Shown here piece by piece: positions 2,302 through 60,149 of a stretch of DNA of 64,000 nt. The stretch comes from Hyphomicrobiales bacterium (GTDB lineage: Bacteria; Pseudomonadota; Alphaproteobacteria; Rhizobiales; UBA4765), in assembly GCA_965247525.1 (NCBI GenBank), contig OZ252015.1:1310210-1374209 (forward strand), in the 5' to 3' direction. The number at the start of each line of letters is the position of its first letter. The first letter of the stretch is position 1. A model generated the notes under the pieces. The model saw only the letters and a list, made by a program, of their open reading frames with translations. It made no database searches and was not told the origin of the DNA. A program made the position numbers and the translations under genes.

Positions 2302-2837
2302 GATTTTTTCTGGCGCTCGATGTCGTCGATCTGGTGTTGCAAGTCACTCATCTGTTTTTTAAGCGTATCGAGATTTTGCTCCTGCTTAGGTGCGGTCTCT
2401 GAAAACGGCGTGAACATGGAAAATGCTTTCTCAAACATTTTCATATTCTGTTTTGCCTGCTCCTGGTACATTTCAAAAGGCGCCGTCAACGCGCCGCTCA
2501 TCTTGCCGCGCCAGTTGTCCTGCTCTTTCGTAAAATTCTGCAGCGCCATATCGAGATAGCCGGGGATCAAGGCTTGCATGCTGTCGCCATAAAAACGGAT
2601 CAGCTGGCGCAGGAAAGGAATGGGAAGCAGTGTCTGCTCGCCTCTGTTTTCAAGTTCAAAAATAATTTGTCCCAGCACGCTGCGTGTCAGGTCCTCGCCG
2701 GTTTTGGCATCGACGACCACGAAGTCTTCGCCGCGTTTGACCATATGCCCCAAATCTTCAAGCGTCACATAGACGGAGGTCTGCGTGTTATAAAGACGGC
2801 GATTGGCATATTTTTTGACTGTAATCGGTTCAGGCAT
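2298..2837 (-). CDS. phaR: polyhydroxyalkanoate synthesis repressor PhaR
   Basis: N-terminal ITVKKYANRRLYNTQTSVYVTLEDL is the PhaR signature. Divergent from phaA-phaB. Confidence 0.9.
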   Translation of the reverse strand: MPEPITVKKYANRRLYNTQTSVYVTLEDLGHMVKRGEDFVVVDAKTGEDLTRSVLGQIIFELENRGEQTLLPIPFLRQLIRFYGDSMQALIPGYLDMALQNFTKEQDNWRGKMSGALTAPFEMYQEQAKQNMKMFEKAFSMFTPFSETAPKQEQNLDTLKKQMSDLQHQIDDIERQKKS

Positions 2838-2976
2838 AGTTGCGTTTCCAAAAAAGGAGCTGACCCCTGTCTTACGGTATTTTGTGCAGTGCGAAAAGGA
2901 GATCGCGCAAAAACTTTTTAACTTGTGCTTGCCAGCACGCAGGGCTCCAGCGTAGGCAGAACAAAAGGATCAAATC

Positions 2977-4152
2977 ATGGAAGACGTTGTCATTGTTTCT
3001 GCTGCCCGCACCCCAGTGGGGTCTTTTAGCGGCGCTTTGGCGTCCGTTCCGGCGCATCTTTTAGGCGCAGCGGCCATTAAAGCGGCGATTGCCCGCGCCA
3101 ATCTCGCTCCAGCCGATGTTGAAGATGTGATTTTGGGTCAGGTGCTTACAGGGGGGCAGGGACAAAATCCGGCGCGTCAGGCCGCGATGGCGGCAGGCAT
3201 TCCGCAGGAGCGTTCGGCCATGACCATCAATCAGGTCTGCGGCTCTGGCCTTCGCGCGGTCGCGCTGGCGGCAAACGCCATCAAAGCAGGGGAAGCCAGC
3301 ATTGTTATCGCAGGCGGGCAGGAAAGCATGTCGCAAAGCGTCCATGCGGCTTTCCTGCGTGCAGGGCAGAAAATGGGCGACCTCTCGCTGGTCGATACGA
3401 TGATCAAAGACGGGTTGTGGGACGCGTTTAACAATTATCATATGGGCCAGACGGCCGAAAACATCGCCGACACATGGACAATCAACCGCGAGGCGCAAGA
3501 CACATTCGCAGTCAGCTCGCAGAACAAGGCGTCGGCCGCGCACAAGCAAGGCCGCTTCAAAGATGAAATTGCACCGGTGACGATTGCAACCCGCAAGGGT
3601 GAAACGGTGGTGAGCGACGACGAATATATTCGCCATGACGCCACGCTTGAAGGCGTATCTGCTTTAAAACCCGCATTCAAAAAAGACGGCAGCGTCACAG
3701 CCGCCAATGCGTCCGGCTTGAATGATGGCGCCGCCGCACTTGTGCTGATGTCGGCAATTGAAGCAAAAAAGCGCGGCCTTGTGCCACTGGCACGCATTGT
3801 GTCATTCGCCACGGTTGGCGTCGATCCGGCGATCATGGGCACGGGCCCAATTCCGGCATCGCGCAAGGCGCTTGATAAAGCAGGATGGCGTGTGGAAGAT
3901 CTTGATCTGATCGAAGCCAATGAAGCTTTTGCCGCGCAGTCGATTGCGGTGTGCCATGACCTGGGGTTCGACCCGGCAAAGGTCAATGTGAATGGCGGCG
4001 CAATTGCCATCGGCCATCCGATCGGCGCGTCCGGCGCACGTATTCTCGTAACGCTCCTTTATGAAATGAAACGCCGCTCCGCCAAAAAAGGGCTTGCGAC
4101 ATTGTGCATTGGCGGCGGCATGGGCGTTGCCCTTTGCGTCGAGGCGGTCTGA
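2977..4152 (+). CDS. phaA: acetyl-CoA acetyltransferase (beta-ketothiolase)
   Basis: Thiolase II motifs [47 protein letters not shown] before the ATG. Next to phaR and phaB. Confidence 0.93.
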
Positions 4153-4877
4153 TGGCGCGCGTTGCACTGGTGACAGGCGGCACGCGCGGAATTGGCGCGG
4201 CCATTTCAAAAGCCCTGAAACAGGCCGGCTATGTCGTCGCTGCAAACTATGCAGGCAACGATGTTGCCGCGGGACAGTTTGAAAAAGACACCGGCATCTC
4301 CGCTTACAAATGGGATGTCGGCGATTTTGATGCCTGCGCGAAAGGCATTCAGAAGGTCGAGGCCGCCCACGGGCCCATTGAAATTCTGGTTGCCAATGCC
4401 GGCATCACGCGCGATGGTTTCTTGCATAAAATGAGCCGTGACGACTGGACCGCTGTGATGCGCACCAATCTCGATGGTCTGTTCAATCTCACGCGCCATG
4501 TGATTGAGGGCATGCGCAACCGCAGCTTTGGCCGCGTCATCGTCATCTCCTCCATCAACGGGCAAAAAGGACAGGCCGGGCAGGCCAATTATTCGGCATC
4601 GAAAGCGGGCGACATCGGGTTTATCAAAGCCCTGGCACTCGAAGGCGCATCAAAAAACATTACCGCAAATGCGATCTGCCCCGGCTATATCAATACTGAA
4701 ATGGTGCAGGCCGTGCCGAAACAGGTTCTTGAAGACAAAATTCTGCCGCTTATTCCAATGAAGCGCCTTGGCGAGCCGGACGAAATTGCGCGCTGCGTTG
4801 TTTTTCTTGCCAGCGACGATTCAAGTTTTATCACCGGCTCGACGCTATCTGCCAATGGCGGGCAGTATATGGCGTAA
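4152..4877 (+). CDS. phaB: acetoacetyl-CoA reductase (SDR)
   Basis: VALVTGGTRGIG and NYSASKAG SDR motifs. TGATG stop/start overlap with phaA. The ORF-track start at 4104 is an upstream extension. Confidence 0.92.
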   Translation: MARVALVTGGTRGIGAAISKALKQAGYVVAANYAGNDVAAGQFEKDTGISAYKWDVGDFDACAKGIQKVEAAHGPIEILVANAGITRDGFLHKMSRDDWTAVMRTNLDGLFNLTRHVIEGMRNRSFGRVIVISSINGQKGQAGQANYSASKAGDIGFIKALALEGASKNITANAICPGYINTEMVQAVPKQVLEDKILPLIPMKRLGEPDEIARCVVFLASDDSSFITGSTLSANGGQYMA

Positions 4878-49842: not shown

Positions 49843-51684
49843 TTAAGGTTGCACGGAAAGCAAAACGCTCGCATCGGTGCTGAGATGGTCGATGATAAGA
49901 AAGCCGCCTTTTTGTTCGGCATGGCCGCAGGCGGCGCATGACACAAATTGTGCTTTTGCAGGCAGTTGCAGCGTCAGCCCGTCAACCGGTTGGGGCACTG
50001 ACAGCTGGACGTTGAGCTGTGTCGCGTTTTGCTGCACATCAATGCCGATCTGGTCGCGCGCTGTCCAGAACTGGCCAAACTGGGCCACGGAGCCGTACCA
50101 GGCGCTGTCTCCCATCGCTTCGACAAAGCCTTTTTCAAAAGCGAATTTCTGACCGATGACATCGGGATGAATCAAAATATTGAACAAGGCGCCGTATTTT
50201 TTGAGTTTTTCGGCCAAAACAATAGCCTGCGGCAAGCGGTCCAGCATCGGCGGGTCAAAAAGATCCTCAACCGTAATCGGAAACTCAAAAACGGGGACTT
50301 CGGCGATGGTGTCGCGGCCATAGGTCAGCTGAAAGGGAAGGTGGGTGATTGAATCATTGGCTGTCACAGATGAGCTGAAAAGGTAATGGGTCGCCGCCAG
50401 CGCCTGGGGCAGAATGTAGGGGTCGCGCAAATGGCCGGGGCGGAACGACACGACAGGCCTTTCCGGTTCAAAATGGTCGAGCAAAAATTTACTCACGCGC
50501 AGCTCGCCAAGAATTGTGCCGCCAACCGTGGTGTTTTTGTCTTTTACGAAAGGAACATAGTTGGGATAGGCTTCTTTGCCTGTGCCCATTTCAAATTTGT
50601 CGAAGCTTTGCGAGTGGGCAATGGAATGGCTGGCAATTTCCATATTCATGGCCCGAATTTTTGAAAGTGTTTTTGTGCCCTCGTCGGTAAAGAAAATATC
50701 ATCATTCCAGTCGCGCACATATTTGACCTGCATGAAATAGGTCGCGCTGATATGGTTTTCGCTTTCATAGGCGGCATATTGCACGGCATTCAAAAGAGAT
50801 TTTGTGTAGTCAATGTCATGTGTCAGCTGCACAGTCAGTGCTTTTCCGTGCGGCACGGTCCACAAGGTCACGCCGCTTTGCTGGCCTTTGATGTAAACGT
50901 TTTTTAGAAAACGAAGCATGACATCGAGCGTCGGCTCATAAGCATTGACATAGCTGGTGGCGATATCCTGCTGCCGGTTGTTATAGCCTTTTTGCAAAAA
51001 ATAGCCGATGTCAAAGCCCAGCGCATACGCCGTGCCCGCCGCATTGCGCAAGATGGCCGGTGTTCCGTCTTGATAGGTTGCAATGGTGTTGGCAGATTGT
51101 GCGACATAGCTGTAAGCGCCGAGGGCAGGATTTTTGGCGCTGCCAATTTTCAGCGTTTTTTCATCGGGGTCGGTAAAGTTTGATGTCGCAGCATCGGCTG
51201 CTGAGAACAGCAGTTGCGTTGCGTTTTTATTCGGCACGACATCTTCATAGTTAAAAATATTTTTTAGCGCGCCGGTAAAAACCTGCTGGGCAATCAGCGT
51301 GCCGCCTTTTGATGGAAAGGCGCTGAGCGCGCCCAGCGCGTCCGCTGACAGGTTACGGCCTGTAATGTTTGGAAACACATAGACCACTTTATGCTTGAGC
51401 GCGGCCTGATAATCTGTCGTCATCATAAACGGAATGCCGATGGTTTTCAGGCCGTGCGCCAAGGCCATCCAGTCGGATGTCGTGTCGGTGAGCAGAACCG
51501 CCATCCGGCTGTCGGAGCCTGTGGCATAGACCTCCCATTTTGCGGGAGTTGGCGGTTCGACAATACTGACATCGCTTGGCCCCGACAGGTCTTTGAAGCG
51601 GTAGAAATAATCTTGGGACTGGTACCAGTAAGCGGCAATAGGGACGGCAAACAGCAAAAATGCCAAAAGGAGAACGCGTTTCAT
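49843..51684 (-). CDS. secreted or membrane-anchored protein with polysaccharide deacetylase (NodB/CE4)-like core
   Basis: N-terminal hydrophobic anchor MKRVLLLAFLLFAVPIAAY. THDIDYT and EIASHSIAHS resemble CE4 motifs 1 and 2. Confidence 0.5.
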   Translation of the reverse strand: MKRVLLLAFLLFAVPIAAYWYQSQDYFYRFKDLSGPSDVSIVEPPTPAKWEVYATGSDSRMAVLLTDTTSDWMALAHGLKTIGIPFMMTTDYQAALKHKVVYVFPNITGRNLSADALGALSAFPSKGGTLIAQQVFTGALKNIFNYEDVVPNKNATQLLFSAADAATSNFTDPDEKTLKIGSAKNPALGAYSYVAQSANTIATYQDGTPAILRNAAGTAYALGFDIGYFLQKGYNNRQQDIATSYVNAYEPTLDVMLRFLKNVYIKGQQSGVTLWTVPHGKALTVQLTHDIDYTKSLLNAVQYAAYESENHISATYFMQVKYVRDWNDDIFFTDEGTKTLSKIRAMNMEIASHSIAHSQSFDKFEMGTGKEAYPNYVPFVKDKNTTVGGTILGELRVSKFLLDHFEPERPVVSFRPGHLRDPYILPQALAATHYLFSSSVTANDSITHLPFQLTYGRDTIAEVPVFEFPITVEDLFDPPMLDRLPQAIVLAEKLKKYGALFNILIHPDVIGQKFAFEKGFVEAMGDSAWYGSVAQFGQFWTARDQIGIDVQQNATQLNVQLSVPQPVDGLTLQLPAKAQFVSCAACGHAEQKGGFLIIDHLSTDASVLLSVQP

Positions 51685-51843: not shown

Positions 51844-52389
51844 TTATTGCGCAAGAAGGGTGCGAATATTGCTTTCCGTTTCAGCGTAATTTCCTTCGCC
51901 AAAATGCGTGTAGACAACCTGCCCCTGCTTATCGATGAGGTAAAAAGCGGGCCAGTAATGGTTGTTGTATCTTGTCCATGTGTCGAGCTGATTGTCGACG
52001 GCCACGGGATAGGTGATCCCGAATTTTGTCACGGCGGCGCTGACATTCGCGATTTTCTTTTCGGCCTCAAATTCGGGCGCCTGAACACCAATTACAATGA
52101 GACCCTGTTCGCGAAATTTTTCATTCCACGCTTTCACATAGGGTAGCGTATTGACGCAGTTGTAGCAGGAATAGGTCCAGAAATCGACGAGCACGACCTT
52201 GCCACGCAAAGCGGACAGACGCAGCGGCTTGCTGTTCAGCCAAGCCTCGATGCCCGAAAACTCCGGCGCGGAATAGGGCTTGGCCAGTCCCTCTTGCAAG
52301 CCGGCGCCGGGCTTTGCCACCGCGGCGTTCACGCTGGCAAAAACAAAACTCAACGCAGAAGCAATCAAAAGACAGCCGAGACTTTTCAT
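51844..52389 (-). CDS. periplasmic thioredoxin-fold (TlpA/redoxin-like) protein
   Basis: Signal peptide. FWTYSCYNCVNTLP CxxC motif. Lies 5 nt downstream of msrA. Confidence 0.82.
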   Translation of the reverse strand: MKSLGCLLIASALSFVFASVNAAVAKPGAGLQEGLAKPYSAPEFSGIEAWLNSKPLRLSALRGKVVLVDFWTYSCYNCVNTLPYVKAWNEKFREQGLIVIGVQAPEFEAEKKIANVSAAVTKFGITYPVAVDNQLDTWTRYNNHYWPAFYLIDKQGQVVYTHFGEGNYAETESNIRTLLAQ

Positions 52390-52394
52390 GGATT

Positions 52395-52994
52395 TTACCG
52401 CGCTGTGTAAAGTGAAGGGAATGTTTTTTGCAACTGCACCACTTTTGGCGCATCATAGGCAACGATGTAAGGATAGTTTGGATTAAGTGCCGCGAAGTTC
52501 TGGTGATGGGCTTCTGCAGGATAAAAGCCGTTCAAGGGTTCGAGCGTCGTCACGATTTTTGAAGAATACGCACGCTCGCTTGCAAGTTTTGCAATGTAGG
52601 CATCCGCCGCCTGTTTTTGCGGGGCGGACGTGTAAAAGATGGCCGAGCGATATTGCGTGCCGCTGTCAGGGCCTTGATAGTTCAACTCTGTCGGATCATG
52701 GGCCACTTTAAAGTAAACGGCCAAAAGCTGGTCCAGTGAAATCTGGCTCGGATTGTATGTGACGCGCACCGATTCCGCGTGCCCTGTCGAGCCTGTGCTG
52801 ACGTCGTCATAATGTGCGGTTGCGGCCGCTCCGCCGGCATAGCCTGAGGTTGCGTCGGAGACGCCTTTGAGATGTTCAAACACCGCTTCGACGCCCCAAA
52901 AGCATCCGCCAGCCAGTACAATCTGGTCGGCTTTGGCAGGTTCGGTCACGGCGCCAAGGCAAAGAGCAAGTGCAGTCATAACAGCGAGTTTCAT
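52395..52994 (-). CDS. msrA: peptide-methionine (S)-S-oxide reductase with signal peptide (periplasmic MsrA)
   Basis: MKLAVMTALALCLGAVTEPAKA signal, then the GGCFWGVEAVF catalytic motif. AAGGAAA RBS. Confidence 0.9.
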   Translation of the reverse strand: MKLAVMTALALCLGAVTEPAKADQIVLAGGCFWGVEAVFEHLKGVSDATSGYAGGAAATAHYDDVSTGSTGHAESVRVTYNPSQISLDQLLAVYFKVAHDPTELNYQGPDSGTQYRSAIFYTSAPQKQAADAYIAKLASERAYSSKIVTTLEPLNGFYPAEAHHQNFAALNPNYPYIVAYDAPKVVQLQKTFPSLYTAR

Positions 52995-53003
52995 TGGGTT
53001 TCC

Positions 53004-53162
53004 TTAAACTTTGATATCGAATGAGGTTGTGAAATTCAGAGCCGCCGATTGCGCGGCCGTGGTTTTGTCATGCGCGGGATCAAACCTGTCCTGCTTGTCA
53101 CGCACCAGCTCGGCATATTTCTCGGCCGGTGAGGAGCAGGAGGTGCAGCGCGATATGCTCAT
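53004..53162 (-). CDS. candidate small ORF (52 aa, CxxC near the N-terminus) heading the msrA operon; not in the ORF track
   Basis: My translation: MSISRCTSCSSPAEKYAELVRDKQDRFDPAHDKTTAAQSAALNFTTSFDIKV. ATG...TAA ends 9 nt before the msrA ATG. Third-position G/C bias resembles neighbouring genes. Weak RBS. Confidence 0.3.
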   Translation of the reverse strand: MSISRCTSCSSPAEKYAELVRDKQDRFDPAHDKTTAAQSAALNFTTSFDIKV

Positions 53163-53257
53163 AAAGTGTCTACCTTTGCGTGGTGGTGGTTAACAAACAG
53201 GCGACCCTTCCCCAAAGGGGAATTGTAAAACGCCGGGATCACTGGCATAGCTGTCGT

Positions 53258-53284
53258 CTCGAACGCACGGAAACGACGGGTTAC
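53258..53284 (-). promoter_or_regulatory. candidate ECF (SigF-type) promoter for the small-ORF/msrA/thioredoxin-like operon
   Basis: Minus strand reads GTAACC-N17-CGAG. The consensus I recall for Caulobacter SigF is GTAACC-N16-CGAA, so this is an imperfect match. Confidence 0.3.
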
Positions 53285-53309
53285 CTCCTTATTCGGGCAA
53301 AGGCTCAGC

Positions 53310-53855
53310 ATGGTTACACAGCCTGAAAAAAACCAGCGTATTTGCGACCTGATGCTCGCCGGTTGCAGAGGCGACCAAGCAGCCTATGCCTGTTTTTTAA
53401 AAGAAATTTCCAATGACCTGCGCCGCTTTTTACAAAGGCGTATGCCCAAAGATGACGTTGAAGATGTCTTGCAGGAAATCCTCATTTCCGTTCATAAAGC
53501 CCGCCACACCTATGATGGTGTGCGCCCGATCCTGCCTTGGGTCTCGGCGATTGCACGTTTTCGCTTAAGCGATTATTTGCGCAAACATTACGCCCGCGCC
53601 AAACACGCCACAATTGATATTACCGAATTGCAGGACAATCTTGCACAGCCCGTAACCGAAACCGGGGCCGATACCGAATACCTGAATGACGCGCTGCGTC
53701 AGTTGCCGCACAGACAGCAGAAGATCATTCATCTGATGCACACGCAGGGCTACACGGCAAAAGAGGTGGGGGGGCAGCTGAACATGAATGAATCGGCTGT
53801 AAAGGTTGCGGCACACAGGGCTTATAAAGTGATAAGGGCACGTTTAAATAAATAG
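53310..53855 (+). CDS. ECF sigma factor (SigF-like, partner of NrsF)
   Basis: Region 2 (LQEILISVHKARHTYD, PWVSAIARFRLSDYLR) and region 4 (QQKIIHLMHTQGYTAKEVGGQLNMNESAVKVAAHRA). Its stop lies 1 nt before the nrsF ATG. Confidence 0.88.
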   Translation: MVTQPEKNQRICDLMLAGCRGDQAAYACFLKEISNDLRRFLQRRMPKDDVEDVLQEILISVHKARHTYDGVRPILPWVSAIARFRLSDYLRKHYARAKHATIDITELQDNLAQPVTETGADTEYLNDALRQLPHRQQKIIHLMHTQGYTAKEVGGQLNMNESAVKVAAHRAYKVIRARLNK

Positions 53856-53856
53856 A

Positions 53857-54501
53857 ATGGGTAAGATCGACGGGTTGATCGACAGTTTGAGCAGCGAGGC
53901 CGCCACTACAAAGCGGTTGCCGTCTCCGCTTGTTCAGCTTTTGCGCGCCGGTCTTGTTCTTGTCGTTTATGCCATTGCCGCCAGTCTTTTTCTCGGACGC
54001 AGGCCAGATCTCGCCTTTCAGATTGAGCGGCCGTTTTATTTGCTTGAGCTCATAATCTTGCCAATCATTGCGTTCTCCAGCCTTCGCGCAGCCTTTTATC
54101 TGTCCTACCCGGACAGCTATCAGCAAAAGCGCGTAGGGCTGTGGCCGCTGGTCAGCGGACTGGCTTTGATCGGGTTGATCCTTTTGCAGATCCTGATGCC
54201 GGCCGACAGCAGGATGCAGCTGCCTGAGGGTGTCAACGGCATGGACTGCGCCACCTGCATTTGTGTTTTTGCCATGCTTCCTTCAGCATTCTTGTTTGTT
54301 CTGCTGCGAAAAGGCGCCACTACGCATCCGCTGCGGGCCGGGCTGTTTATTGCTTTAAGTGCTGCCAGCACAGGCTGTTTTATCTTGCGACTTGCGGAGC
54401 CCAATGACTCTCTGGTGCATGTTCTGCAATTTCATTATTTGACCACACTGGCCTGTGCCTTTGTCGGCACGCTTATCGGAAAATTCGCGCTTCGCTGGTA
54501 G
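53857..54501 (+). CDS. nrsF: NrsF-family (DUF1109) membrane anti-sigma factor
   Basis: N-terminal IDGLIDSLSSEA helix, 6 TM helices, and Cys in periplasmic loops (GMDCATCIC, STGCFIL). Confidence 0.82.
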   Translation: MGKIDGLIDSLSSEAATTKRLPSPLVQLLRAGLVLVVYAIAASLFLGRRPDLAFQIERPFYLLELIILPIIAFSSLRAAFYLSYPDSYQQKRVGLWPLVSGLALIGLILLQILMPADSRMQLPEGVNGMDCATCICVFAMLPSAFLFVLLRKGATTHPLRAGLFIALSAASTGCFILRLAEPNDSLVHVLQFHYLTTLACAFVGTLIGKFALRW

Positions 54502-54567
54502 TTGCCTTTATAAGTGCCGCCCAATCTCGTGTCTTTTAATAAAATTTATTTTTAATCTGGATTTTAT

Positions 54568-54593
54568 GTAACGTCCTTACCTTGGCTCACGAA
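54568..54593 (+). promoter_or_regulatory. candidate ECF (SigF-type) promoter upstream of the Cys-rich precursor gene
   Basis: GTAACG-tccttaccttggctca-CGAA (N16), about 110 nt upstream of ATG 54704. Confidence 0.5.
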
Positions 54594-54703
54594 TAAAACA
54601 GTAATCGCTGTGACGGTCTGGTCTTCTAAAGTCCTGCTTACGCCGCGGTTTCTTCCCGGGCTGTCACTTTTGAAGTCCGGTCATTCAAACAAGGAGTTCT
54701 CCA

Positions 54704-54955
54704 ATGTCATCATCTAAATTTGCTGCAGCAGCGCTTGCAGGCCTTCTCTCCGCTGGTGTTGTTTCGGTCGGTACCGTGCAAGCTGCCGGTCTCGATAAAA
54801 CAACATCATCAACAATGGCGTCAGAAAAGCATGCTTGCAAAGGCATGAACGCTTGTAAGGGCCAAGGCGGCTGCAAAGCCGGCGACAATGGCTGCGCTGG
54901 CAAGAACTCTTGCAAAGGCAAAGGCGGCTGCGCAACGGACGGCAGCAAGAAGTAA
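54704..54955 (+). CDS. bufA: Sec-signal, six-Cys Gly/Lys-rich RiPP precursor (bufferin-like, 6-Cys class)
   Basis: AAGGAG RBS 7 nt upstream. Signal peptide MSSSKFAAAALAGLLSAGVVSVGTVQA/AG. Core CKGMNACKGQGGCKAGDNGCAGKNSCKGKGGC. Lies immediately upstream of a DUF692 enzyme. Confidence 0.8.
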   Translation: MSSSKFAAAALAGLLSAGVVSVGTVQAAGLDKTTSSTMASEKHACKGMNACKGQGGCKAGDNGCAGKNSCKGKGGCATDGSKK

Positions 54956-54978
54956 TTTTACGCTTTATTTAAAAAACG

Positions 54979-55000
54979 GAAGCGGGACTTGTCCCGCTTC
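54979..55000 (+). other. intercistronic stem-loop between the precursor and the modification gene
   Basis: GAAGCGGGA-cttg-TCCCGCTTC (9-bp stem). No T-run follows. Confidence 0.6.
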
Positions 55001-55032
55001 TACACTTCATTCAATATCAAGGCGGTCATATT

Positions 55033-56760
55033 ATGAATTCTTCTTCACAGACATCGTGGGAAAAACCGGACAGCTTTTTTCCAGATCTGGGGTTCGGCCT
55101 TGGCCTGCGCATTGATCATTACCCGCATATTTTCAACCAGTGGCCTGATGTTGACTGGTTTGAAATCATCTCCGAAAATTTTATGGACACCGACGGCAGG
55201 CCGCTGCGCAATCTGGCGCGCATTCGTGAGCGCTATCCGGTTGTCATGCACGGCGTGTCGATGTCGATCGGCACTGTTGACCCCATCAATTCCGAATATA
55301 TGGCCAAGCTGAAAAAGCTGATGGACTGGCTAAAGCCTGCATGGGTGTCTGACCATCTGTGCTGGACAGGCGTTGCCCATAAAAACACGCATGACCTTCT
55401 GCCCGTGCCTTACACGGAAGAATCTTTAAAACAAATCATCTCACGCATCAAACAAGTGCAGGATTATCTGGAGCGCCCGATCGCGCTTGAAAATCCGTCA
55501 ACCTATCTTGAATTCAAAGCCTCGCACATTCGCGAAGAGGAATTCATCTCGCGCATGGCGGAGGAATCCGGCTGCCATCTGCTGCTCGACGTTAACAATG
55601 TGTATGTCAGCTGCTACAATCACCGCCTTGATCCCAAGGCCTATATCGACGCGATGCCGCTCGACAAGGTCGCGCAAATCCATTTGTCCGGACACACCAA
55701 CAAAGGCACGCATATCGTCGATACACATGACGACCATGTGGTCGATGAAGTCTGGGCGCTCTATCGCTACACCATTAACAAGGCACAGCGCACCATCACG
55801 ACCATGGTGGAATGGGACGGAAATATTCCTGAATTTGATGTGCTGAATGCGGAACTTGCCAAGGCAAAAGTCGCCGCTCAAGATGCTCATAATTACGGCA
55901 CGCTTCCCGACCTTGCCAAAAACCATCCCTATTACATTGCCAATATGGAAACGCCTCTGGTTGAACAACAGACCCGCATGCAGGCTGCGATTGTCACTGG
56001 GAAAGACCCTGAGCAAAATCCAGCGGCATGGATTCGCGAGAAGCCAGACTTTCCTGCCGCAGAGCAGCTGAACGTCTACATCGAATCCTATCGCTTCCGC
56101 CTCTATGATGTTGTGGCCGAAGATTATCCCGTCCTGCAGACCTATCTTGGCGACGATGCGTTTGAAAAACTGATCTGGTCTTTTCTCGACGCCGCGCAAT
56201 CGGAGCATTTCAATATTGGACGTTATGCCGCACGCCTTCCGGCTTTTTTAAAGCAGTACAATCCAGTCGATGCTTTTGCAGTTGAGATTGCGAAGCTTGA
56301 AAACGCCGTGTCGCAGCTGACAGACCCAGCAGAGACCGTCGCGCTTGAGCCGCAGCATCTTGGCGCCTTAACGGCTGACACATTAATGGAGATGAAGCTT
56401 CATCCGCGCACAGCGTTGGAGCTGTTTTCCTTCGCCTATCCCGTCAATGCCTATTACATCGCGGTCAAGGAAGAGTCGCTGCCTGAAAAGCCTGCGCTGC
56501 AGCACAGTTTTGTTGCCGTGTTCCGGCATGATGACGTTGTCTGGCGTATGGACCTTGGCGAAAACGAATACCATCTTTTGACAAAGCTTTTTTCAGGCGT
56601 GCCAATCGGGCAGGCCATGGACGAGCTGCAGCACGAGCGCGCGCTCCCCGATGATGCGCTGGCCGCCAATTTGTCGGACTGGTTTTCAAGGTGGATCCGC
56701 AACGGACTTCTTGCAAAAGAACCAATTTCACATCTCTCAGAAGAAAGTCATGCCGCATGA
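55033..56760 (+). CDS. fused DUF692 (MNIO, BufB/MbnB-like) and DUF2063 (BufC-like) RiPP maturase
   Basis: N-terminal ~300 aa TIM-barrel DUF692 motifs VMHGVSMSIG, SDHLCW, ENPSTY, LLDVNNVYVS, IHLSGH, DTHDDHV. The C-terminal ~270 aa are DUF2063-like (NVYIESYRFRLYDVVAEDYPVLQTYLGDDAFEKL). Confidence 0.85.
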   Translation: MNSSSQTSWEKPDSFFPDLGFGLGLRIDHYPHIFNQWPDVDWFEIISENFMDTDGRPLRNLARIRERYPVVMHGVSMSIGTVDPINSEYMAKLKKLMDWLKPAWVSDHLCWTGVAHKNTHDLLPVPYTEESLKQIISRIKQVQDYLERPIALENPSTYLEFKASHIREEEFISRMAEESGCHLLLDVNNVYVSCYNHRLDPKAYIDAMPLDKVAQIHLSGHTNKGTHIVDTHDDHVVDEVWALYRYTINKAQRTITTMVEWDGNIPEFDVLNAELAKAKVAAQDAHNYGTLPDLAKNHPYYIANMETPLVEQQTRMQAAIVTGKDPEQNPAAWIREKPDFPAAEQLNVYIESYRFRLYDVVAEDYPVLQTYLGDDAFEKLIWSFLDAAQSEHFNIGRYAARLPAFLKQYNPVDAFAVEIAKLENAVSQLTDPAETVALEPQHLGALTADTLMEMKLHPRTALELFSFAYPVNAYYIAVKEESLPEKPALQHSFVAVFRHDDVVWRMDLGENEYHLLTKLFSGVPIGQAMDELQHERALPDDALAANLSDWFSRWIRNGLLAKEPISHLSEESHAA

Positions 56761-57266
56761 TCGATACAGCAGATAGCACCCACACATCAATTTTTAGCAA
56801 AGCCGTTGCGCTCTTGATCGGCTGGCCGGAATGGGTCGCCTCGCATTTTTTATGGGCAGGGCCACTTTTTGCCCGCATCGTTGTCGGCTACGTTTTTATG
56901 CTGACAGGTTGGGCCAAGTTGCACAATCTGCCGGCAATGATTGAGAATTTTGCGGGCTGGGGCATTCCCTATCCCGAAATCCTCACGCCTTTTGTTTCAG
57001 GCGTCGAGTTTTTCGGCGGCCTTTGCCTGATCTTCGGTCTGTTTACCCGCATCTTTGGCGGCATGCTCTCCGGTGTCATGGTGGTTGCCATCATTTCAGC
57101 AAAATGGAGCGATATTGACTCTGCTGAAACCCTACTGGGTTTTGAAGAGACAACCTATCTTGCTGTTTTCTTCTGGCTGGCGGTTGCCGGCGCCGGAAAA
57201 GCCTCGCTGGATTATCTTCTGAACAGCAAATTTGGAACATCAAAAGCGGCTGTCTCGTTCCGTTAA
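56757..57266 (+). CDS. DoxX-family membrane protein
   Basis: 4 TM helices. FARIVVGYVFMLTGWAKL. ATGA overlap with the upstream gene. The track start at 56691 is an extension. Confidence 0.82.
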   Translation: MIDTADSTHTSIFSKAVALLIGWPEWVASHFLWAGPLFARIVVGYVFMLTGWAKLHNLPAMIENFAGWGIPYPEILTPFVSGVEFFGGLCLIFGLFTRIFGGMLSGVMVVAIISAKWSDIDSAETLLGFEETTYLAVFFWLAVAGAGKASLDYLLNSKFGTSKAAVSFR

Positions 57267-57330: not shown

Positions 57331-57405
57331 TGGTGCCGATGGAGGGAATTGAACCCCCGACCTTCGCTTTACGAAAGCGCTGCTCTACCCCTGAGCTACA
57401 TCGGC
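57331..57405 (-). tRNA. tRNA-Thr (anticodon CGT)
   Basis: Minus-strand sequence GCCGATGTAGCTCAGGGGTAGAGCAGCGCTTTCGTAAAGCGAAGGTCGGGGGTTCAATTCCCTCCATCGGCACCA. Anticodon loop TTCGTAA. Encoded CCA. Confidence 0.93.
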
Positions 57406-57629: not shown

Positions 57630-58763
57630 TTACTTGGCTTCCGAAGACCATGGAAAATTGATGTATGTGTTGCGGGTGTCGTAACAAATATTCCCATACA
57701 TTTTGAGATACGCAGCACGCCGTTTTGGGTCTGCATATACTTTTTCAGGGTCATCGAGATCCTTTTCATAAGCCGCTAAATTATCTGCCGTAACTGCAGT
57801 GGGCAAAATGTCCATGGCCTGCGGAATGCTTTTTCCCTCCAACCAGTCGGCGGCATATTGGCCCATGGCATAGGCAAACACGGGCGATGCAAGGCTGATT
57901 GTCATTTTGTAGGGCCCAGCTTTTTTGATTTCCGAAACAGCTTCAGGCTCGCCGTCGATGCCGCCTAGAAATTGATCGGGTCTGTCTTCACCTGTGGCAC
58001 GCAATGCTTTGAGGGCCCCGAGAACGACTGCATCTGCGCCTAGAACGACGTCAATATTGGGATTGGCAAGGAGAATGGTATTCATCGTGGCAAAGCCGCC
58101 GTCCTTGGTGACGGGTTTTGGCGCGATGTCGGCGATGATTGTGACCCCGGGCAACTTGTTCAGGCCGTCGCGCATTGCCTCAAACCGCGGCGACAAATAT
58201 TCCATTGTGTCTTGCGTCAGCAGCACGACATTGGCTTTGCCGCCAAGCTTGTCATTGATGTATGTGATCGCGGCATCGGTCAAAACTTTCCCTGTTGCAT
58301 ATTGTGGAGCGTTGAGAAGCAATGTCGCCGGCGGCGGCACGATCGTGCCGACAAAAGCGCCAGACCAAATCAAGCGCTCCAAATTGGGAGCTATAGCGGC
58401 AGAATCAGACGAGGTGGCGATGAGAGCGCCGCTTTTTTCAGCTTGAAGCAAATGGAGTTGTTCCAATACTTTAGTGGTGTCATTTTCCACCAAAACTTTG
58501 CGATATTTAAGCTCACGATTTTGAGCGGCAAGGAACAGGCCGTGGTCGACCCCTTGCAGGAACTCGCGCTCATTTTCTTGGATGTAAGTTAAAGTCTTCG
58601 CAAGGCCGGACGGCGGACTGCAAGGCGGCGCATATGCGTTAAAAGGCGCAAATAATGTCGGCGTTGTAATGCCGGATGGTCTTTCATCGGCATGCGCCAC
58701 ACTGGCCATAAAAAGAGAAAAAACCGCAAAAGCCTGACGAAAATAATTTTGGGCCATACGCAT
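57630..58763 (-). CDS. periplasmic binding protein (type 1, sugar-binding-like), orphan with no ABC partner genes
   Basis: Signal peptide ending VAHA. Two-lobe PBP1-like sequence (NVVLLTQDT, VVLGADAVVLGALKAL). Lies 24 nt downstream of a CHASE3 kinase. Confidence 0.65.
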   Translation of the reverse strand: MRMAQNYFRQAFAVFSLFMASVAHADERPSGITTPTLFAPFNAYAPPCSPPSGLAKTLTYIQENEREFLQGVDHGLFLAAQNRELKYRKVLVENDTTKVLEQLHLLQAEKSGALIATSSDSAAIAPNLERLIWSGAFVGTIVPPPATLLLNAPQYATGKVLTDAAITYINDKLGGKANVVLLTQDTMEYLSPRFEAMRDGLNKLPGVTIIADIAPKPVTKDGGFATMNTILLANPNIDVVLGADAVVLGALKALRATGEDRPDQFLGGIDGEPEAVSEIKKAGPYKMTISLASPVFAYAMGQYAADWLEGKSIPQAMDILPTAVTADNLAAYEKDLDDPEKVYADPKRRAAYLKMYGNICYDTRNTYINFPWSSEAK

Positions 58764-58787
58764 TCGCTGTTCCAGATGGTTTAGGTC

Positions 58788-60149
58788 CTAAAGAGAAAAA
58801 ACAAGTCGCGCGGCCGTGCCGGGGTCGCCGGCACTGTAATTAATCTGCGCGCCCAAGCTCGCTGCCATCGTTTTAACAATTTTTGTACCAAGTCCCGTTC
58901 CTTTCGGTTCGGCGCTTTCATGACGGCCGACACCGTCATCTTCAACTGTAAGCTCAATCTGCTTGTCCAAGAGATGTCTGAGACGAACACGAATTTCCCC
59001 AACGCGGTCAGGATAAGCATATTTAAAAGCGTTGGTCACAAGCTCAGCAACGATAACACCTAGATTGATGGTTGCATCTGTTGGCATATCAAATGGCTCA
59101 ATGTCGTATTTCAAAGACGCGCCATGCCCTTCGTCGCGCATTGATATTTCAAGGTGCTCAAGCAGACTTGAAAGATAGTCATGCATTGCGACGAAACGCA
59201 CATCTCCTGAGCTATAAAGGCTTTTATGGACAGATGCTACGGCGTAAATACGCGCCTGCGTTTCACCAAGAGCTATTTTTGCAGCTTTGTCCGTCAGCAC
59301 ATTGGCTTGCAGTCGCACAAGCGAAGCGACAAGTGAAAGGCTATTGGCAACGCGGTGGTTGACTTCGGCAAGCAGCAATTGGGCGCGGTCGCGGGCCTGC
59401 GCCAGATCGGCTGTGCGGTTTTGAACGCGTTCTTCAAGTTTTGTATTGAATGCCGTGACTTCATCACGTGTTCTAGACAGCTCACACGTGTAACGAAAAA
59501 GTGCAAAAATGACGGAGGCGACGACCCCAACAATAACAAATCCACCCATAATCGAAATCCAGCGAAGCCACGACGCATTGGCGCGCTGCTGGCGCACGCC
59601 TGCGTTCAAACTTTCATCGGATGTGCGGATAATGCCTGCAAAAAAAACATTGGCTTCATCAATCAAAGCCTTGCCGCGATTGGTGCGAGTTGTTGCCAAA
59701 GCCTCTGGATCGTGCCGCTCACGCTTAAGCGCAATGATTGTATCCATTTCATCGACCTTCTCGATAATGATGGTTTCAAGGCGCTGCAAAGCGACCTGCG
59801 TTTGGGGGAAGGACACAAGGCTGTCTTTTAAAACCATAAGCTGGCGCAGCGCGACGGTTTTGGCTGTCGAATAAGGTGCAAGATAAATCTCGTTGCCCGT
59901 GTAGGCGTAACCGCGCTGGCTCGATTCTGCAGTCTGAATGGCATTGCGTAATTCGACGGCAGCCGTGCGCGTATCGCGCGCTGCAAAAGCCTGATTGGCA
60001 TAATCTTGCGTGCGCTCCACCAGCCATATCGTCATGCCGACAATGCTAAGAAGCGTCATGAAACCGACGGCAAGCAGAACAATTGTTGTGCGGACAGAAA
60101 AATGGCTTTTGACAGGCATCACCACAATGGCATGCCTGATGTTGAACAT
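58788..60149 (-). CDS. CHASE3-HisKA_2 sensor histidine kinase
   Basis: TM-CHASE3-TM layout (ESSQRGYAYTGNEIYLAPY). H-box [35 protein letters not shown]. Confidence 0.85.
   Translation of the reverse strand: MFNIRHAIVVMPVKSHFSVRTTIVLLAVGFMTLLSIVGMTIWLVERTQDYANQAFAARDTRTAAVELRNAIQTAESSQRGYAYTGNEIYLAPYSTAKTVALRQLMVLKDSLVSFPQTQVALQRLETIIIEKVDEMDTIIALKRERHDPEALATTRTNRGKALIDEANVFFAGIIRTSDESLNAGVRQQRANASWLRWISIMGGFVIVGVVASVIFALFRYTCELSRTRDEVTAFNTKLEERVQNRTADLAQARDRAQLLLAEVNHRVANSLSLVASLVRLQANVLTDKAAKIALGETQARIYAVASVHKSLYSSGDVRFVAMHDYLSSLLEHLEISMRDEGHGASLKYDIEPFDMPTDATINLGVIVAELVTNAFKYAYPDRVGEIRVRLRHLLDKQIELTVEDDGVGRHESAEPKGTGLGTKIVKTMAASLGAQINYSAGDPGTAARLVFSL

Follow-up and report, generated by a model that had tools for sequence, protein, structure and literature searches.

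A candidate self-regulated Buf2-type bufferin locus with a single-chain BufB-BufC maturase in a Hyphomicrobiales bacterium

Bufferins (captophorins) are the largest group of RiPPs (peptides made by ribosomes and modified after translation) modified by multinuclear non-heme iron oxidases (MNIOs), and they are a widespread defence against copper stress. The Buf2 or BUF_6/12Cys family was named by Leprevost et al. (PMC11626156; PMC12452194) and corresponds to the "Cys-Lys" class of captophorins, for which BufA2B2C2 is the example (PMC13097082). In Caulobacter vibrioides, the buf2 operon (bufA2B2C2, CCNA_02999-03001) is controlled by SigF and induced by copper; four central cysteines of its product lose 4.03 Da each, consistent with 5-thiooxazoles, and the first and last cysteines are unmodified and probably form a disulfide (PMC11626156). 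In the characterised cases, 5-thiooxazoles are formed by MNIO-PME1 clusters, and binding of copper by the product is the general finding (PMC13097082). Here we describe a five-gene locus in a 64,000-nt stretch of DNA from a Hyphomicrobiales bacterium (contig OZ252015.1; the whole stretch is called the window, and coordinates are positions in it). Judged from its sequence and by analogy with the characterised systems, we consider it about 80% probable that the five genes form a self-regulated biosynthetic module for a bufferin of the Buf2 type (captophorin, "Cys-Lys" class).

The locus spans positions 53310-57266 of the plus strand, and its five co-oriented open reading frames (ORFs) lie where an earlier note on this DNA had placed them. 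The five proteins were searched against Pfam and NCBIfam profiles at curated cut-offs. They are a sigma-70 family factor of the extracytoplasmic function (ECF) type (53310-53855, 181 aa; Pfam Sigma70_r2, Sigma70_r4_2 and Sigma70_ECF), an NrsF-family (DUF1109) membrane anti-sigma factor (53857-54501, 214 aa), a BufA2-type bufferin precursor (54704-54955, 83 aa; assigned by NCBIfam BufA2 and its core motif), a single-chain BufB-BufC protein made of MNIO and DUF2063 parts (55033-56760, 575 aa; assigned by Pfam, NCBIfam and an AlphaFold2 (AF2) model) and a DoxX-family membrane protein resembling BufD/HvfX (56757-57266, 169 aa). The start of doxX is the ATG at 56757, inside a longer listed ORF with a GTG start at 56691, and the ATGA overlap between bufBC and doxX that had been noticed before was read directly at 56757-56760 as gccgcATGAtcg. 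The description of the genes as tightly packed holds for sigma and nrsF, which are separated by 1 nt, and for the overlapping bufBC and doxX, but not for the 202-nt spacer between nrsF and bufA and the 77-nt spacer between bufA and bufBC. Since these spacers hold a promoter-like box and a hairpin, respectively, the locus probably consists of at least two transcription units. An identical gene order was found in eight related loci (L001, L003, L006, L008, L010, L016, L017 and L022), and with this recurrence the arrangement is not one of chance. The assignment to a bufferin-type MNIO RiPP cluster is borne out by an MNIO_BufB match above the cut-off, a partner of the DUF2063/RiPP recognition element (RRE) type, DoxX and a Cys-rich precursor with a signal-like N-terminus.

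The locus shares with Caulobacter buf2 a six-Cys BUF_6/12Cys precursor (here with a signal peptide predicted at the N-terminus), MNIO and DUF2063/RRE maturation functions and a SigF-type promoter box, and the expected product would by analogy also be a periplasmic copper-binding small protein with 5-thiooxazoles at the inner cysteines. In contrast to Caulobacter buf2, BufB and BufC are one polypeptide, doxX is present, and the sigF-nrsF pair is located directly upstream, whereas in Caulobacter it lies beside buf1. An ECF16 sigma factor and NrsF next to a precursor-MNIO-DUF2063-DoxX operon, together with GTAAC-N16/17-CGAA promoters, are also known from Caulobacter buf1, from the gig operons of Cupriavidus and Legionella and from rpoE7-ecfR7 with SMb20527-20530 in Sinorhizobium meliloti (PMC11626156; PMC3511200; PMC6180224); however, the precursors of these systems are of the DUF2282 type (Buf1, four Cys), and maturase and partner are separate. 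In Neisseria gonorrhoeae (Ecf/NGO1945-1948, gonophorin) and Haemophilus influenzae (RpoE2/hvf, oxazolin), one ECF sigma factor is likewise tied to an MNIO-PME1 cluster and to methionine sulfoxide reductase, but the precursors are DUF2282-like and EGKCG, the B and C proteins are separate, and msrAB does not lie back-to-back with the sigma start codon. The msrAB link of the Neisseria Ecf reportedly goes back to work by Gunesekere and colleagues in 2006. Kohler et al. discuss NGO1945 in connection with Caulobacter msrA genes (PMC3511200). Every component of the window locus comes from a known family, and by analogy the system is expected to work like Caulobacter buf2. What the sequence sets apart from every characterised example is the fused BufBC, DoxX and an own SigF/NrsF pair in a Buf2 cluster, and the predicted back-to-back promoters shared with msrA. 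The earlier note as a whole was largely right, and the locus is less novel than it had claimed.

In agreement with the DUF692 and DUF2063 assignments made earlier, both halves of the 575-aa protein gave significant matches. Residues 21-281 correspond to Pfam PF05114 (MbnB_TglH_ChrH; 353.1 bits, E 1e-105, profile positions 2-261 of 263), and NCBIfam NF050167 (MNIO_BufB) scores 362.9 bits, above its cut-off of 310. The partner half matches DUF2063 (PF09836) at residues 312-406 with 55.2 bits against a cut-off of 27.2 (E 9e-15). The HvfC model, which covers DUF2063 and RRE, aligns residues 339-561 to profile positions 19-235 of 237 with 42 bits, less than its 142-bit equivalog cut-off, and PF22106 (NGO1945_C) is annotated on several close fused homologues. 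The MNIO and DUF2063/RRE (PME1) domains are joined by a conserved linker of about 25-30 residues. An AF2 model built from 42 homologues is confident over both halves (pLDDT 85.6, pTM 0.81); its C-terminal half consists of helices followed by a unit of three strands and three helices at residues 462-556. Foldseek searches with the model returned 3BWW (target-normalised TM-score 0.80), TglH and MbnB as best matches to the TIM barrel. These TIM-barrel matches dominated the search with the whole model, in which no independent match of the RRE half to 3DEE was found, and a PDB sequence search with the C-terminal half gave no match. No variation is seen across 42 fused homologues at H73, H108, E153, D186, N189, H217, D230, H232 and E260, which are candidate metal-site residues. 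For H73, H108, E153, D186, H217 and E260 we assume the metal-ligand roles of the corresponding MbnB residues. N189, D230 and H232 align via 3BWW with N175, D242 and H244 of HvfB, functionally essential residues of site 3 (10.64898/2026.07.17.739211).

The fusion is not peculiar to the window. The best-scoring homologue clusters, at least 120 with 63-100% identity, all encode proteins of 550-585 aa with both Pfam domains; they come from metagenomes and metagenome-assembled genomes labelled Alphaproteobacteria, Rickettsiales or Rhodospirillales, and no cultured organism is among them. In about 20 independently assembled loci the fused gene is a single uninterrupted ORF. When the C-terminal half was searched against 1.84 billion cluster representatives (50% identity), 4,405 matches were obtained, the best 150 of which comprise six full-length fusions (28-54% identity), two fused fragments and otherwise standalone proteins of about 250-290 aa. 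With about eight of these 150 fused, at such low identities, the fusion is by this measure a minority architecture that is present in several diverged lineages. Partner proteins of the BufC/HvfC/NGO1945 type show a narrow size distribution around 250-260 residues (PMC12452194); here, no separate partner polypeptide of this size is present, and the partner is the C-terminal half of the 575-aa chain. No description of a natural MNIO-DUF2063 fusion was found in the text or supplements of the landscape paper (PMC12452194), which is absence of evidence only, and a preprint of July 2026 gives only MovX and ChrH as exceptions (10.64898/2026.07.17.739211). In the same preprint an engineered HvfB-HvfC fusion was fully active. 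There, too, a single chain runs from the C-terminus of the MNIO into the N-terminus of the DUF2063/RRE partner, but the construct is artificial and without linker, and it is more active than the co-expressed pair; the window fusion, in contrast, is natural, has the conserved linker and belongs to the BufB (Buf2) branch. The fused maturase pointed out in the earlier note does exist and seems to be uncharacterised; it is, however, a lineage trait common in uncultured Alphaproteobacteria and not a singular case.

A homology search with the precursor peptide found 6,207 relatives, which share with it the core motif KHACKGxNxCKGxGGCKxGDNGCAGKNSCKGKGGCA, present in one copy (6 Cys, about 85 aa) or two copies (12 Cys, about 120-140 aa). 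The core cysteines of the window peptide (positions 18, 24, 30, 37, 43 and 49) follow the family pattern with its Cys-Lys dyads. The peptide aligns to NCBIfam NF050166 (Cu_RiPP_BufA2) with 38.0 bits (E 1.4e-9; residues 8-77 to profile positions 6-65 of 79), and no Pfam model matches it; matches of 12-Cys relatives to DUF7640 were sub-threshold and were discarded. By inspection, the N-terminus consists of MSSSK, the hydrophobic stretch FAAAALAGLLSAGVVSVGTV and VQA|AG, and is predicted to be a Sec-type signal peptide of 27 aa. This would leave a Lys/Gly-rich mature core of 56 residues with 6 Cys and an unmodified monoisotopic mass of 5394.42 Da. The bufA gene has a strong Shine-Dalgarno sequence (AAGGAG), and its position next to the maturase gene recurs in most related loci. 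By its motif, the peptide fits into the published Buf2 (BUF_6/12Cys, "Cys-Lys") family as an ordinary member and represents no new core type: the six-Cys, CKG-repeat core that had been taken for a new variant is the defining pattern of this family.

Precursors of the fused clade vary, with 6 Cys, a shortened 4-Cys core, 8 Cys, 12 Cys or other repeat types. Some of them, in L003, L005, L009 and L011, have lost the middle of the Buf2 motif. The shortened form reads KHACKGxNSCKGQGADGKNxCKGxGSCATDGSK, and a tandem copy of it yields the 8-Cys core. In L008 and L012 the repeats of the precursor differ markedly and are of the CxGK type, and L017 contains two tandem precursor genes (4189-4407 and 4650-4751 of that locus) upstream of a single fused maturase gene. 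Since cores with 4, 6, 8 or 12 Cys occur together with the same fused enzyme, a relaxed substrate recognition is suggested.

The sigma factor scores 74.9 bits with TIGR02937 (sigma70-ECF; cut-off 42.9) and is SigF/ECF16-like, judged by its partner and the promoter motif. NrsF matches the complete Pfam profile PF06532 (positions 1-204 of 204) with 116.6 bits (cut-off 26.8, E 1.8e-33). The sensory cysteines of Caulobacter NrsF are C131 and C181. Among eight aligned sequences, numbered here by the window protein and not by that of Caulobacter, Cys131 is invariant, Cys134 is present in six and Cys174 in three. DoxX matches PF07681 with 68.4 bits (cut-off 23.6, E 8.5e-19) and the NCBIfam HvfX family with 63.5 bits, less than its 80-bit cut-off. 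The doxX gene is located 3' of the fused gene in 10 relatives; in Caulobacter, DoxX is dispensable.

SigF binds GTAACC-N16-CGAA (PMC3511200), and the promoters of S. meliloti RpoE7 have the same form (PMC6180224). In the window, a SigF/ECF16-type box, GTAACG-N16-CGAA(T), is present on the plus strand at 54568-54593 and ends 110 nt upstream of the bufA ATG. A second, exact box, GTAACC-N16-CGAA(T), at 53292-53317 on the minus strand overlaps the sigma start and is directed towards the msrA-redoxin genes. These are the only two exact matches to GTAAC-N17-CGAA in the 64-kb window, and they flank sigma-nrsF. Besides the window, 12 of 15 genome loci have tGTAAC(C/T)-N16-CGAAT upstream of the gene for the precursor or, in L007, of that for the maturase. 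Some of these loci have no adjacent sigma gene; Caulobacter buf2 is likewise SigF-dependent from a distance (PMC11626156). In L016, which has the same five genes and 83% BufBC identity, the intergenic region has diverged, and TTTATGTAAC and CGAAT are kept around a scrambled 16-nt spacer. In its pattern this conservation is a typical promoter footprint. With a box of the published SigF type upstream of the precursor gene and its conservation in relatives, control by the adjacent ECF sigma/NrsF pair, as proposed before, is plausible, and self-regulation of the locus likewise.

Read on the plus strand, the -35 element of the minus-strand box corresponds to sigma codons 1-3 (ATG GTT AC, the conserved "MVT"). 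Because it is built into these codons, holoenzyme bound there could throttle transcription of sigma-nrsF and thereby act as negative feedback. The box is fully conserved in L016. In L003 and L006 it also covers the sigma start, and in the Buf1-type locus L015 a minus-strand box is found just upstream of sigma. In L015, a gene for a DoxX-like membrane protein (2742-3176 of that locus, minus strand) sits behind this GTAACC-N16-CGAAT box, divergent from sigma and not at the operon end. The window contains a second near-match, GTAACC-N17-CGAG, at 53255-53285 on the minus strand. Furthermore, a 40-nt block, GGAATTGTAAAACGCCGGGATCACTGGCATAGCT, at about 53220-53260 matches L016 nearly perfectly in an otherwise diverged spacer and may serve as promoter of sigma-nrsF or belong to the leader of the msrA transcript. 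Four relatives have a sequence of the form GTAACGG…CGAA in the 3' end of bufBC, which was rejected as a doxX promoter: it is missing in the window and probably reflects conserved "RNGLL" codons.

Between the precursor and maturase genes, a GC-rich stem-loop with a 9-bp stem is located at 54979-55000 on the plus strand. Eight of 11 folded relatives (L001, L002, L003, L005, L006, L009, L010 and L013) and L016 have a hairpin at the same position after bufA. It is a probable leaky terminator or mRNA-stabilising hairpin. Since relatives carry the hairpin together with a T-run at this place, a leaky terminator that sets a high ratio of precursor to enzyme is suggested. An Rfam scan of the window found two tRNAs and nothing else, so that a riboswitch or small RNA does not account for the long leaders.

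In a published survey, sigma/NrsF genes were found in Buf1 clusters and not in Buf2 clusters (PMC12452194). We surveyed 96 loci for this linkage. Of the metagenome loci of the unfused Buf2 type, those in which the upstream sequence covers 2.6 kb or more were counted (about 26), and NrsF was absent within 5 kb on either side from all of them. It was present in the two Buf1-type loci, L014 and L015, in which B and C are separate genes and the precursors are DUF2282-like, and in the fused clade, namely in the window and the eight loci of identical gene order; about half of the fused loci with enough flanking sequence are NrsF-linked. Within the 96 loci, NrsF was thus found only in Buf1 loci and the fused clade. 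The published rule holds for these unfused Buf2 loci and is broken by the window and its eight relatives. Because NrsF occurs in none of the unfused Buf2 loci, the sigma/NrsF linkage is lineage-specific and not random.

The minus-strand box faces a gene for MsrA (52395-52994, minus strand; Pfam PMSR 2e-56), followed after 5 nt on the same strand by a gene for a thioredoxin-fold redoxin with the CxxC motif "SCYNC" (51844-52389; Redoxin 1.3e-15, AhpC-TSA 7e-14). Both proteins have a signal-peptide-like N-terminus, and for this reason MsrA is probably periplasmic. We regard msrA as the probable target of the divergent SigF-type promoter and the redoxin as a probable member of the regulon. In L006, the divergent operon reads msrB-msrA-msrB-msrA, and its distance from the box is about 50 nt. 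The msrA gene of L017 is again divergent from sigma, and sigma-nrsF is located there about 900 nt upstream of the precursor genes. From the arrangement in the window, a bidirectional regulon is suggested, and promoter interference may affect the transcription of sigma-nrsF.

The following mechanism is modelled step by step on characterised homologues, and the gene set, families, fusion, boxes, hairpin and conservation that it connects are read from the sequence. The membrane-bound NrsF would be inactivated by a signal at the envelope, either excess copper or a different stress of thiol-reactive or oxidative kind, and the ECF16/SigF-like sigma factor would be set free. The freed sigma factor would fire two back-to-back promoters, one upstream of bufA and one on the opposite strand over its own start codon, the latter driving the periplasmic MsrA-redoxin repair operon. 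Transcription of bufA would be in excess, and only some of the transcripts would pass the hairpin and extend into bufBC-doxX. The precursor would be bound in the cytoplasm by the DUF2063/RRE half of the single-chain BufB-BufC, and the di- or tri-iron MNIO half would use O2 to convert central cysteines to 5-thiooxazoles. By analogy with Caulobacter Buf2, these would be the four inner cysteines, leaving Cys I and Cys VI for a disulfide. Export by Sec and removal of the 27-aa signal peptide would then yield a 56-residue periplasmic metallophore that buffers copper. The combined picture, in which a single-chain maturase in a bidirectional ECF16 module makes a thiooxazole copper peptide alongside Msr repair, with feedback through the -35 element in the sigma codons and relaxed substrates, is tentative and unlikely to be right in all its parts.

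Several observations weigh against the assignment to a self-regulated Buf2-type module. The peptide's score of 38 bits lies below the BufA2 cut-off of 60 bits, so that the family hidden Markov model is not passed. Close relatives reach 33-65 bits with the same model, an equivalog built around other lineages, and only the 12-Cys relative P0139 passes it (65.3 bits). NrsF scores 48 bits with its NCBIfam equivalog, for which the cut-off is 300. Since both are below the equivalog cut-offs, peptide and NrsF have no orthologue-level match to the Caulobacter proteins and are distant from them. Among the profile assignments expected from the earlier note, NrsF (DUF1109) and DoxX were confirmed by Pfam, while the precursor match to BufA2 remained sub-threshold. 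The cleavage site of the signal peptide was placed by eye, and a plus-strand SigF-type box was searched for upstream of sigma and none was found. The T-run that follows the hairpin in relatives is degenerate in the window, which has no good U-tract at this place, and the msrA start is about 300 nt away from the divergent box. In S. meliloti, RpoE7 targets are not induced by H2O2, Cd or chromate (PMC6180224).

The main alternative assigns the same genes to an oxidative or hypochlorite (thiol- and methionine-damage) envelope-stress response, in which the peptide would serve as a redox or electrophile sink beside MsrA and redoxin. It is an open alternative, favoured by the msrA/redoxin coupling, as the sigma factor appears to co-drive the periplasmic MsrA-redoxin operon, and no copper-efflux or copper-oxidase gene was seen among the genes neighbouring the locus. 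DoxX homologues elsewhere are tied to protection from oxidative stress (PMC12452194), and MNIO-PME1 clusters have been linked to oxidative stress, with the hypochlorite response of H. influenzae RpoE2 as a cited case (PMC13097082). All characterised bufferin-type products bind copper, however (PMC13097082), and in Caulobacter it is Cu that induces the operons, whereas Fe, Zn and Mn do not (PMC11626156); we give this alternative a distinctly smaller chance than the copper-buffering module. The two are compatible, because copper itself oxidises thiols and methionine.

Three other explanations are poorly supported. The sigma/NrsF pair could be a mere neighbour, with the bufferin genes controlled otherwise and the GTAAC...CGAA matches due to chance. 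The motif with one mismatch is indeed not enriched in the window (4 observed, 9.4 expected), and about half of the fused-clade loci are without adjacent sigma/NrsF; but the only two exact matches flank sigma-nrsF, 12 of 15 genome loci, some without adjacent sigma, have the box at the matching position, the -35 and -10 elements are conserved around a diverged spacer in L016, and NrsF is in none of the unfused Buf2 loci, which makes a neighbour by chance very improbable. There is just as little room for an unmodified, metallothionein-like Cys-rich periplasmic protein or for a different modification such as oxazolone-thioamide. The sub-threshold BufA2 score and the wide variation of fused-clade cores (4, 6, 8 or 12 Cys) would fit it, but in nearly all loci the precursor gene directly precedes that of the maturase, no variation is seen at the candidate metal-site residues, and all characterised MNIO-PME1 products have been reassigned to 5-thiooxazoles (PMC13097082; 10.64898/2026.07.17.739211). 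The related metagenome contig L022, in which the fused gene has frame breaks, could be taken to mean that the fusion is an artefact (of assembly or a frameshift) or reflects a pair of genes in decay. This explanation is effectively refuted by the at least 120 independent clusters of 550-585 aa with both domains at 63-100% identity, the uninterrupted ORF in about 20 independently assembled loci, six further full-length fusions among the 50%-identity representatives (28-54% identity) and an AF2 model confident across both halves.

Two small ORFs are located between the divergent promoter and msrA, one of 52 aa with a CTSC motif (53004-53162, minus strand) and one of 29 aa with an HHH run (53159-53248, minus strand), which overlap by ATGA. 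Neither has a Pfam or NCBIfam match or homologues, and the sole database match of the 52-aa ORF is itself. Differences between the 52-aa ORF and the part seen in L016 are mostly at third codon positions, which suggests real coding, and it is possibly a small gene. The gene at 49843-51684 (minus strand), 160 nt downstream of that for the redoxin, encodes a 613-aa protein that has a signal-peptide-like N-terminus and no Pfam or NCBIfam match. On the other side, tRNA-Thr(CGU) (57331-57405, minus strand) and doxX are convergent; 65 nt lie between the tRNA gene and the doxX stop codon, and no clear intrinsic terminator is present there. Further downstream, 57630-60149 (minus strand) encodes a Peripla_BP_4 sugar-binding-type protein and a CHASE3-HisKA_2/HWE histidine kinase, with no evident link to bufferins.

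The basic understanding of the bufferin system remains unchanged, and the arrangement is unsurprising in principle. The occurrence of Buf2-type clusters with their own SigF/NrsF is a small correction to the published statement that this linkage is confined to Buf1. The natural and abundant BufB-BufC fusion is a ready subject for structural and mechanistic work on MNIOs: the 2026 preprint needed engineering to obtain a stoichiometric, highly active fusion, and here evolution has fixed a 1:1 complex. Finally, the conserved back-to-back promoters would couple production of the peptide to periplasmic Msr repair and may thereby link the copper and the oxidative readings of the regulon.

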